From contig CM000152.2 in NCBI GenBank assembly GCA_000004695.1, forward strand, positions 160,001 through 224,000: a stretch of DNA of 64,000 nucleotides, in the 5' to 3' direction. Position numbers and translations under genes: made by a program. Shown here in pieces: positions 24,302 to 25,878 of this stretch. The DNA is from Dictyostelium discoideum. Taxonomy: Eukaryota. The notes beneath the pieces are model-generated. The model saw nothing but the letters and a program-made list of their open reading frames with translations, did no database searches and was not told where the DNA came from. Numbering within the stretch: position 1 is the stretch's first letter; every line of letters begins with the position of its first letter.

Positions 24302-25878
24302 ATGACAAAATTACCATTTCAGGTTAAAGATATTTTACTATCAGAATTAGGTAGAAAAGAAATTTCAATTGCAGAAAATGAAATGAAAGGATTAATGGGA
24401 TTACGTAAAAAATTTGGACCATCAAAAATTTTAAAAGGAGCACGTATTGCAGGTTGTTTACATATGACAATTCAAACTGCAGTTTTAATTGAAACGTTGG
24501 TTGAATTGGGAGCACAAGTTCAATGGTCATCAAGTAATTGTTTATCAACACAGCGGCAGTTGCATCCAAAGGTATCGCGGTTTATGCATGGAAAGGTGAA
24601 ACTTTAGAAGAGTATAATTGGTGTATTGAACAAACTTTATATTTTCAAGATGGACAACCAATTAATATGATTTTAGATGAGGGGTCAGATTTAACAAGTT
24701 TAGTAATTGAAAAACATCCAAAAATTCTATCACAACTTAGAGGTATAACTCAAGGATCTTATAATGGAATTAACTATTTATCAAAACTATATAGTCAAAA
24801 GAAATTAAAAATTCCAACTATCAATATCAATGATTCAATTACCAAGAGTAAATTTGATAATTTCTACGGTTGTGGTGAATCATTAATTGATGGTATAAAA
24901 AGTGCGACCAATATAATGATTGCTGGTAAAGTTATAACAATTGCTGGCTATGGATATGTTGGTAAAGGTTGTGCTAAACAGTTAAGTAAATTAGGTGCAC
25001 GTATCCTTATCACAGAAATAGATCCAATTAATGCACTTCAAGCTTCAATGGATGGTCATCAAGTGGTCACAATGGAATATGCTGCACCAATATCAAATAT
25101 TTTCATCACAACAACTGGTTGTCCAAATATTATTACAAGTGATCATTTTAAATTTATGAAAGATGATTCAATCCTATGTAATCTTGGTCATTTAAATACT
25201 GAAATCGATATTGATTGGTTGAATAATAATTCAATTAAAAAAGATATTATTAAAAAGGATTTAGTTGATCGTTATACTTTTATTAGAATTAATAATAATA
25301 ATAATGATAATAATAAACCAAACGATAATAATGATGATGAAAATAATGATAATATTAATAATAATAATAATAATAATAATAATAATAATAATAATAATAA
25401 TAATAATAATAATAATAATAATAATAATAATAATAATAATAATAATAATAATAATAATAATAATAATAATAATAATAATAATAATAATAATAATAATAAT
25501 AATAATAATAGTAATAATGATAAATATCATTTAATGATTTTATCAAAAGGTAATGCAATTAATATTAGTAATAGAGATGGTGGACATCCATCATTTACAA
25601 TGTCAATTTCATTTTGTAATCATGTTTTCTCACAAATTTCACTGTGTGTTGAATATTATTCTTTGAAATATTCACCTGGAATTCATATTTTACAAAGATC
25701 TTTTGATGAAGAAATTGCTCGTTTACATTTAAATCATCTTGGTGGTAAACTAACAGTTTTAACTCCAACCCAAAGTAATTATTTAGGTATTGACAAAATG
25801 GAACTTATAAACCAAGTTTTTATAGATATTAAAGATATTAAAAAAAAAAAAAAAAAAAAAAAAAAATTAATTTTTTAA
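24302..25878 (+). CDS. Adenosylhomocysteinase-like protein (divergent SAHH paralogue) with apparent 1-nt frameshift near 24553 and a poly-Asn insertion; possible pseudogene or pseudoenzyme
   Basis: Two overlapping track ORFs (24302..24607 in frame 2, 24538..25878 in frame 1) together align end-to-end with S-adenosyl-L-homocysteine hydrolase. Matching segments include [78 protein letters not shown] and [12 protein letters not shown]. The frame switches exactly between STQ (CAG 24551-24553) and AAVASKG (GCG from 24553). The (AAT)n tract at 25357-25512 encodes about 50 Asn. Substrate-loop and NAD-motif residues are substituted (EETTTG to QGSYNG, GYGDVGKG to [12 protein letters not shown] to GHLN). 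Confidence 0.75.
25357..25512. repeat. (AAT)n microsatellite, about 52 units, in-frame poly-Asn tract inside the SAHH-like CDS
   Basis: Perfect AAT array. It reads as Asn in the gene frame, and as poly-Ile/poly-Tyr in the spurious overlapping ORFs. Confidence 0.95.

Follow-up and report, generated by a model that had tools for sequence, protein, structure and literature searches.

Within a 64,000-nucleotide window of the Dictyostelium discoideum genome (positions 160,001 to 224,000, forward strand, of contig CM000152.2 in assembly GCA_000004695.1), the interval 24302-25878 carries, on the plus strand, a disrupted gene related to those for S-adenosylhomocysteine hydrolase (SAHH). On structural and evolutionary grounds it is very probably a recently disabled allele, in the laboratory strain AX4, of a conserved SAHH paralog that is otherwise maintained by selection. 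The gene is a single-exon, lineage-restricted paralog that is intact in wild D. discoideum and in sister species. In the AX4 lineage, a net 13-bp deletion stops translation after 83 native residues, and a second deletion, of 1 bp, puts the C-terminal Lys/Tyr pair that clamps NAD out of frame. AX4 would then lack a functional product, a strain-level loss, and the gene would not be needed for growth or development in the laboratory. The intact protein would most likely serve as an SAHH-like subunit of low abundance that binds a ligand or has a regulatory task, either by itself or with the canonical enzyme SahA, and a bulk metabolic enzyme appears unlikely.

The interval contains two overlapping open reading frames (ORFs), ORF1 at 24302-24607 (101 aa) and ORF2 at 24538-25878 (446 aa), the latter listed mechanically from a TTG start. 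Both match the Pfam families AdoHcyase and AdoHcyase_NAD (E values of 8e-37 to 1e-57), the domain pair of SAHH/AHCY (PF05221 plus PF00670), with scores of 127, 178, and 195 bits compared with curated cut-offs of 25 to 27. ORF2 also aligns with solved SAHH structures in PDB at E values of 1e-113 to 1e-118. The central coding segment, which covers the remainder of the substrate domain, the NAD domain, and the hinge, is 96 to 98% identical to the intact allele by tblastn. In an exact protein look-up, the product of ORF1 proved to be XP_642082.1, the "hypothetical protein DDB_G0278035" of D. discoideum AX4 chromosome 3, and the product of a neighboring DnaJ ORF was identical to its AX4 protein; the downstream part of the SAHH-like gene returned no protein record. 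The AX4 annotation lists only the truncated ORF under that name, an artefact that hides a disrupted gene. A different artefact occurs in the annotation of an AX4-like assembly, where a single 638-aa model (L005, 9819-12570) fuses the broken SAHH-like gene with Rpb8. Our literature search for the locus tag or for a Dictyostelium SAHH-like pseudoenzyme gave nothing relevant, and DDB_G0278035 is not mentioned by any paper in the library searched.

Codon-aware alignment with seven intact orthologs revealed three deletions that are private to AX4, 13 bp net, 6 bp, and 1 bp in size (Table 1). Lesion 1 is best described as a loss of 10 bp at about 24552/24553 plus a loss of 3 bp at 24559/24560, which together drop the codons for Q-D-H-A and shift the frame by -1, such that ORF1 runs from its native part through 18 out-of-frame codons to a stop. 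An earlier inspection of this DNA (here called the sequence-only reading) had ascribed the split into two ORFs to a one-base shift; the two ORFs are indeed present, but the -1 change of frame is caused by the net 13-bp deletion and not by one missing base. The 6-bp deletion is in frame and affects a loop that reads RDGGGGHP in the other six D. discoideum-group sequences and is shorter (GNGGHP) in D. firmibasis. Lesion 2 sends ORF2 through 26 further residues to its end at 25878. What had been taken for a remodelled C terminus is the result of this second frameshift, and the ancestral tail can still be read in another frame. This tail holds the equivalents of human K426 and Y430, both out of frame in the AX4 allele. 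In the human enzyme these residues clamp the NAD of the neighboring subunit, and mutation of K426 abolishes both NAD binding and tetramerization (PMC13406329).

Table 1. Features of the SAHH-like gene (window coordinates)
Feature	Position	Strand	Remarks
N-terminal coding segment, ancestral frame	24302..24552	+	83 native residues, MTKLPFQ...SSSNCLST; Pfam AdoHcyase, E 8e-37
Lesion 1	24549..24560	+	Net 13-bp deletion relative to all seven intact orthologs; codon-aware DNA alignments
Central coding segment, ORF2 frame	24553..25797	+	Ends in LGIDK; Pfam AdoHcyase_NAD, E 1e-57, and AdoHcyase, E 3e-52
QGSYNG loop	24751..24768	+	Replaces EETTTG (human E155-G160); kept in 6/7 intact orthologs, QASHNG in D. 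citrinum
Glycine-rich NAD loop GYGYVGKG	24946..24969	+	Fourth residue Tyr for Asp; Asn in D. dimigraforme and D. firmibasis
GHLN	25186..25197	+	Replaces GHFD; gate/hinge His301 retained; F302L, D303N
Asn-rich insert	25288..25518	+	In frame; 77 residues, 66 of them Asn; pure (AAT)51 at 25357-25509
Private 6-bp in-frame deletion	25573..25584	+	Junction 25578/25579; AX4 reads RDGGHP
Lesion 2	25795..25798	+	1-bp deletion in A-run; A4 in AX4, A5 in all intact orthologs
Ancestral C-terminal tail, 11 residues plus stop	25797..25832	+	Now out of frame; from translation

Both frameshifts, the 6-bp deletion, and the repeat length are reproduced in the AX4-like assembly GCA_054883475.1, which over 24000-26200 is identical to the reference save for two upstream bases. 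Over 16 kb the two are 99.5% identical, and because 14 mismatches and 16 gaps separate them, this assembly is not a copy of the reference. Furthermore, the exact 101-aa ORF was present in four Logan contigs, two of which were shown to derive from independent runs (SRR26869267 and SRR28564541). As regards its reading frame, the AX4 allele is a pseudogene, with disrupting lesions that are reproduced independently of the reference.

In seven other genomes (two wild D. discoideum, two D. cf. discoideum, D. citrinum, D. dimigraforme, and D. firmibasis) the gene occupies the same chromosomal position as a single uninterrupted ORF of 455 to 528 codons, and none of these orthologs contains an intron (loci L001, 10001-11368; L004, 6001-7425; and L006, L007, L008, L009, and L010). 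The order of the neighborhood is a divergently transcribed N-acetyltransferase gene, the SAHH-like gene, Rpb8, and fimbrin beyond. The top database match, encoded by a single ORF in another D. discoideum genome, has 455 aa, and the version of a second strain has 474 aa; KAM9954600.1 is an example of an intact protein. All seven share the QGSYNG loop (with the D. citrinum variant given in Table 1), GYG[Y/N]VGKG, GHLN, and an Asn insert, and all end in a canonical-looking C terminus. The five looked-up ortholog proteins with the longest poly-Asn tracts were absent from a collection of 15 billion proteins, among them those of L006 (12106-13692), L007 (12070-13590), L008 (12209-13729), and L009 (15578-17056), while other proteins of the same genomes were present. 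Because of this absence, our homology search ran without these orthologs. We infer that the gap reflects the filtering of poly-Asn proteins. Protein-level searches alone hence under-report this SAHH-like family, and absence from such a collection is not evidence of absence.

Comparison of the orthologs points to strong purifying selection. With the Asn insert excluded, Nei-Gojobori pairwise ratios of nonsynonymous to synonymous substitution rates (dN/dS) were 0.06 to 0.12 within the discoideum/citrinum/dimigraforme set and 0.15 to 0.18 against D. firmibasis, and all bootstrap upper bounds were at or below 0.25. The value near 1 that relaxed constraint would produce was not found for the family, which, as judged from these substitution patterns, is under strong purifying selection and is not decaying. 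Its protein sequence does change about 2 to 12 times faster than that of canonical SahA, with 53 differences between D. discoideum and D. firmibasis in the paralog and 14 in SahA. On the AX4 terminal branch we counted 14 private substitutions, 3 nonsynonymous and 11 synonymous, where neutrality predicts about 79% nonsynonymous (binomial P = 6e-6); here too, relaxed constraint is not apparent. Given this pattern, the gene was probably constrained for most of the AX4 branch and the deletions would be recent. The sequence-only reading had offered a decaying pseudogene as one of its options and had held against it that 446 codons stay open. The 446-codon ORF is real, and it is still open in AX4 because the lesions are recent; likewise, the idea of a pseudogene is apt for the AX4 allele with its two frameshifts but not for a family that is intact in seven genomes.

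The overwhelming majority of private substitutions run from A/T to G/C (11:0 in AX4, 9:0 in one D. cf. discoideum, 31:4 in D. citrinum). With a genomic A+T content of about 78% this is unexpected, and it might stem from ancestral polymorphism, from biased gene conversion, or from homoplasy through parallel GC-to-AT changes. A peculiarity of AX4 was considered and rejected, since the same skew is seen in every lineage. Ectopic gene conversion from sahA was likewise rejected as the source of the AX4-private changes, 0/14 of the private bases matching sahA.

SAHH is among the most conserved enzymes. In the paralog, the canonical motif set is replaced by QGSYNG, GYGYVGKG, and GHLN; these motifs, and the conserved stretches that the sequence-only reading had quoted beside them, are indeed present, and their coordinates were checked. 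In human numbering, D131, E155, T157, D223, F302, and H353 are invariant in 119 close SAHH homologs, and E156 and T158 are conserved in 118/119. Measured against these homologs, the combination of substitutions in the paralog lies far outside normal SAHH variation. In the glycine-rich loop, known SAHHs have Asp or Trp as the fourth GxGxxG residue, which touches the phosphate via its main chain (PMC13406329), so that the exchange of Asp for Tyr need not abolish NAD binding.

The Asn-rich insert had been reported as an in-frame (AAT)52 tract. It is in frame, and the pure run has 51 units within a 77-residue insert; Tandem Repeats Finder (TRF) describes it as 78 imperfect copies at 25290-25523. 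The insert is present in every ortholog at variable length, from about 17 residues (L001) and 36 (L004) to 77 in AX4 and about 95 in D. citrinum. The shorter inserts could partly reflect repeat collapse in contig-level assemblies. In the AlphaFold2 (AF2) model of the intact allele the equivalent segment is a low-confidence surface hairpin loop, with a predicted local distance difference test (pLDDT) score of <50.

The AF2 model of the intact 455-aa allele has an overall pLDDT of 78.5 and a predicted TM-score (pTM) of 0.74; confidence is low in the Asn insert and in the loop before GHPSF. Its top Foldseek matches are Drosophila, human, and mouse AHCY, with TM-scores of 0.86 to 0.91, consistent with the two-Rossmann-domain SAHH fold. 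We mapped residues to human numbering and took their roles from a review (PMC13406329). The adenine pocket (T57, Q59, H353, and M358) is retained, as are H55, which contacts the substrate 5'-OH (PMC13406329), K186, D190, the gate residue H301, and C195. The NAD-binding set, comprising the GxGxxG glycines, E243, N191, N346, and the K426/Y430 clamp, is present in all seven intact orthologs. Changed are D131E, E155Q, E156G/A, T157S, T158Y/H, T159N, R196G, D223Y/N, F302L, D303N, and C79S. The canonical substrate-ribose and catalytic set is therefore incomplete: H55, K186, and D190 are kept, and D131, E156, T157, T158, and T159 are changed. Of these, E156 binds the substrate 2'-OH, and the T158/T159 pair fixes the nicotinamide ribose for hydride transfer (PMC13406329).

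By descent and predicted fold, then, the paralog is a member of the SAHH family that should not be filed as a canonical enzyme. The intact protein is predicted to fold as an SAHH subunit and should still be able to form oligomers and to bind both an adenine nucleoside and NAD. Because E156, T158, and T159 are replaced (by G/A, Y/H, and N) and D131 has become Glu, the NAD-dependent oxidation-elimination cycle on S-adenosylhomocysteine (SAH) is probably abolished or strongly impaired. The remodelled QGSYNG loop presumably has a function of its own, since it is conserved. The sequence-only reading had proposed, as its other option, a non-catalytic SAHH-like pseudoenzyme. The conserved, divergent paralog with altered motifs bears out the first part of this proposal, whereas "non-catalytic" is a deduction from residues, and we would give a non-catalytic binding or regulatory protein about an even chance. 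Codon usage may bear on its abundance. Codon bias is linked to expression in D. discoideum, and the G+C content at third codon positions (GC3) is 0.13 in the paralog versus 0.35 in sahA, with 11% versus 50% C-ending pyrimidine codons. Such very weak bias suggests that the paralog is expressed at a low level.

Some of the evidence weighs against our interpretation. Frameshift 2 is supported by two assemblies only, as the Logan contigs end in the AAT repeat, and the AX4-like assembly may share the laboratory lineage of AX4, in which case it would confirm the sequence but not the spread of the broken allele. In the intact protein H55, K186, D190, H301, and C195 remain and T157S keeps the hydroxyl, and this protein may have an altered enzymatic activity. 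One rival reading is that the frameshifts are mistakes in the reference sequence and that AX4 has an intact gene; in its favor, Lesion 2 falls in a homopolymer A-run, where sequencing errors are typical. Lesion 1, however, is a 13-bp deletion and not a homopolymer slip, the 101-aa ORF recurs in the four Logan contigs, and a separate assembly, set apart by its own mismatches and gaps, carries the two lesions along with the 6-bp deletion and a repeat of equal length, which makes reference errors very improbable. We consider it equally improbable that the AX4 locus still yields a useful product, whether through a splice that bypasses Lesion 1 or in the form of two fragments, one N-terminal and one C-terminal. 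ORF2 does offer a long open frame, and there are 90 formal GT...AG pairs of the right length class, but all of the candidate introns are coding-like (53 to 73% A+T), and their removal would cost conserved core residues that every ortholog encodes; no intact ortholog has an intron. Moreover, Lesion 2, at 36 nt upstream of the ancestral stop, cannot be spliced around and removes the K426/Y430 equivalents. Least probable of all is that the whole paralog lineage is a functionless, decaying sahA duplicate wherever it occurs. The changes in the catalytic loop and the poly-Asn tract do look degenerate, the codon bias is very weak, and the stem branch is very long. Yet seven genomes hold an uninterrupted ORF of 455 to 528 codons at about 70% A+T, dN/dS is 0.06 to 0.18 with confidence intervals far below 1, and the altered motifs are themselves conserved.

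A more serious contender, though one that we still consider unlikely, is that the intact paralog is an active enzyme, either a second SAHH isozyme or a neo-enzyme that uses its remodelled ribose loop to act on another adenine nucleoside or derivative. It would draw on the retention of K186, D190, H55, H301, H353, C195, and the full set of contacts to the NAD adenosine, phosphate, and clamp, on the conservative nature of T157S and D131E, on purifying selection acting on QGSYNG, and on the main-chain nature of the contact made by the fourth GxGxxG residue. Against this, the E156 that binds the 2'-OH is lost and the two Thr residues of the nicotinamide ribose are replaced, the changed positions are essentially invariant in the 119 close, active-type SAHHs, and AHCYL1/2, reported to be inactive, depart from the canonical sequence at four of the positions that are changed in the paralog (157, 223, 302, and 303).

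The wider meaning of a selected paralog that is disabled in AX4 can be put more tentatively. On balance the chances seem about equal for and against a D. discoideum-group protein that was derived from SAHH independently of the animal IRBIT/AHCYL proteins and would be non-canonical, acting as a nucleoside/NAD sensor-regulator or as an enzyme with new chemistry, with AX4 as a natural null. If so, decades of Dictyostelium genetics based on AX4 could not have revealed the biology of this gene, and the intact alleles of wild isolates would offer a ready-made comparison of null and wild type. To our knowledge, the animal AHCYL/IRBIT proteins are the only well-known non-catalytic derivatives of SAHH. 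A second, independent lineage that changed positions 157, 223, 302, and 303 and yet kept the NAD clamp would reveal what evolution retains and reuses of the SAHH scaffold once catalysis has been abandoned.

As to the age of the paralog, the duplication is older than the divergence of D. discoideum from D. firmibasis, the two ends of the range in which the paralog has been found so far. Neither the fimbrin locus of D. purpureum (L011) nor that of P. violaceum (L013) was syntenic, and no SAHH-like sequence was found at either; a search with Rpb8 gave no entry from D. purpureum for which a contig is recorded. In a neighbor-joining tree the paralogs are monophyletic and branch, with a very long stem, outside all canonical SAHHs of dictyostelids, a placement that is probably due to long-branch attraction. 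Among diagnostic character states, the paralog shares 0/7 of those specific to the canonical proteins of the discoideum-firmibasis clade and 4/13 of the Dictyostelia-specific ones. This hints, without being decisive, that the paralog arose before that clade did, or that it went through a burst of change once duplicated. A one-residue gap (NANAK-KD...) relative to animal sequences is common to all ten canonical dictyostelid SAHHs and is lacking in the paralog (at about 25225-25260); this hints that the paralog is older than the dictyostelid crown group, or else that the alignment is ambiguous here. When the intact allele served as the query of an exhaustive profile search among representatives clustered at 50% identity, the paralog proved to be merged with canonical SAHH clusters, at 62% identity. 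Canonical sahA is itself intronless, so that the lack of introns in the paralog is no sign of a retrogene origin.

The surroundings of the gene can be described briefly. The G+C content of the window is about 20%, and scans of the window for tRNAs and with Rfam gave no matches. Further AAT-type tracts at about 22980-23182 and 30631-30795 cross-match the poly-Asn tract of the SAHH-like gene and are probably poly-Asn or intergenic repeats of neighboring genes. Intron 2 of Rpb8 (26693-26941) is CA/AC-rich, with 76% A+T versus 85% in intron 1, and a (CA)n run at 26185-26200 lies just upstream of the Rpb8 start.

Among known systems, the closest is canonical SAHH itself. The sequence-only reading had called for a check for a second, canonical sahA; an intronless copy was found on another chromosome of the AX4-like genome. 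With canonical SahA (431 aa, P0005) and human AHCY the paralog shares the same two Pfam domains and the same fold, and its identity to SahA is about 62%. Save for the Asn insert it has the length of SahA, and like SahA it is intronless, starts with MTKL..., and ends in ...YRY. It also keeps the NAD clamp, the adenine pocket, K186, D190, and H301 of SahA and AHCY. In contrast to SahA, it has QGSYNG in place of EETTTG and the substitutions D131E, R196G, D223Y/N, F302L, D303N, and C79S, carries an Asn-rich insert of 17 to about 95 residues in a hairpin loop, changes faster, and shows weak codon bias.

AHCYL1/2 (IRBIT) proteins have substituted catalytic residues and an added N-terminal IRBIT domain and are reported from vertebrates and arthropods; they are reported as inactive, and the interaction between AHCYL1 and AHCY is described as weak (PMC12955632). 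Like them (PDB 3MTG and 3GVP), the paralog derives from SAHH, has changed critical catalytic residues, and is kept by selection beside an active AHCY-type enzyme. Both lineages differ from canonical SAHH at positions 157 (T to S), 223, 302, and 303 (D to N), and GHLNTEID(I) of the paralog (25186-25212) is nearly the same string as GHSNTEID of AHCYL. The two sets of changed residues nevertheless overlap without being the same: AHCYL has EESVTG, GYGEVGKG, and GHSNTEID, keeping E155/E156 and losing H353, while the paralog does the reverse. An N-terminal IRBIT (PEST/Ser-rich) domain was not found in the paralog, which begins at the same MTKL as SahA, nor is it closer to AHCYL, as 3MTG and 3GVP score 257 and 248 bits compared with 381 to 399 bits for canonical AHCY structures. 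The IRBIT/AHCYL affiliation that the sequence-only reading had put up for comparison thus falls away, because the paralog has no extension, is nearer to AHCY, and differs in part of its changed residues. The likeness to AHCYL would therefore appear to be convergent and not due to common descent.

The trypanosome prozyme of S-adenosylmethionine decarboxylase (AdoMetDC) (PMC5201418) offers a parallel, by analogy only, as an inactive-looking paralog of an oligomeric enzyme of methyl/polyamine metabolism that retains its oligomerization elements. AX3 is the parent of AX4, and the multiple lesions of AX4 are unlikely to be younger than AX3. The paralog was also considered as the discadenine synthase, reported from some Dictyostelium species only and with no gene candidate (PMC7316887); this was judged unlikely, as AX3 makes discadenine (PMC6920973). 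With regard to its fate in AX4, the gene resembles a polymorphic unitary pseudogene, in that one allele has two frame-disrupting deletions and other strains are intact. It differs from such a pseudogene in having no accumulated decay, the substitutions on the AX4 branch still looking constrained.

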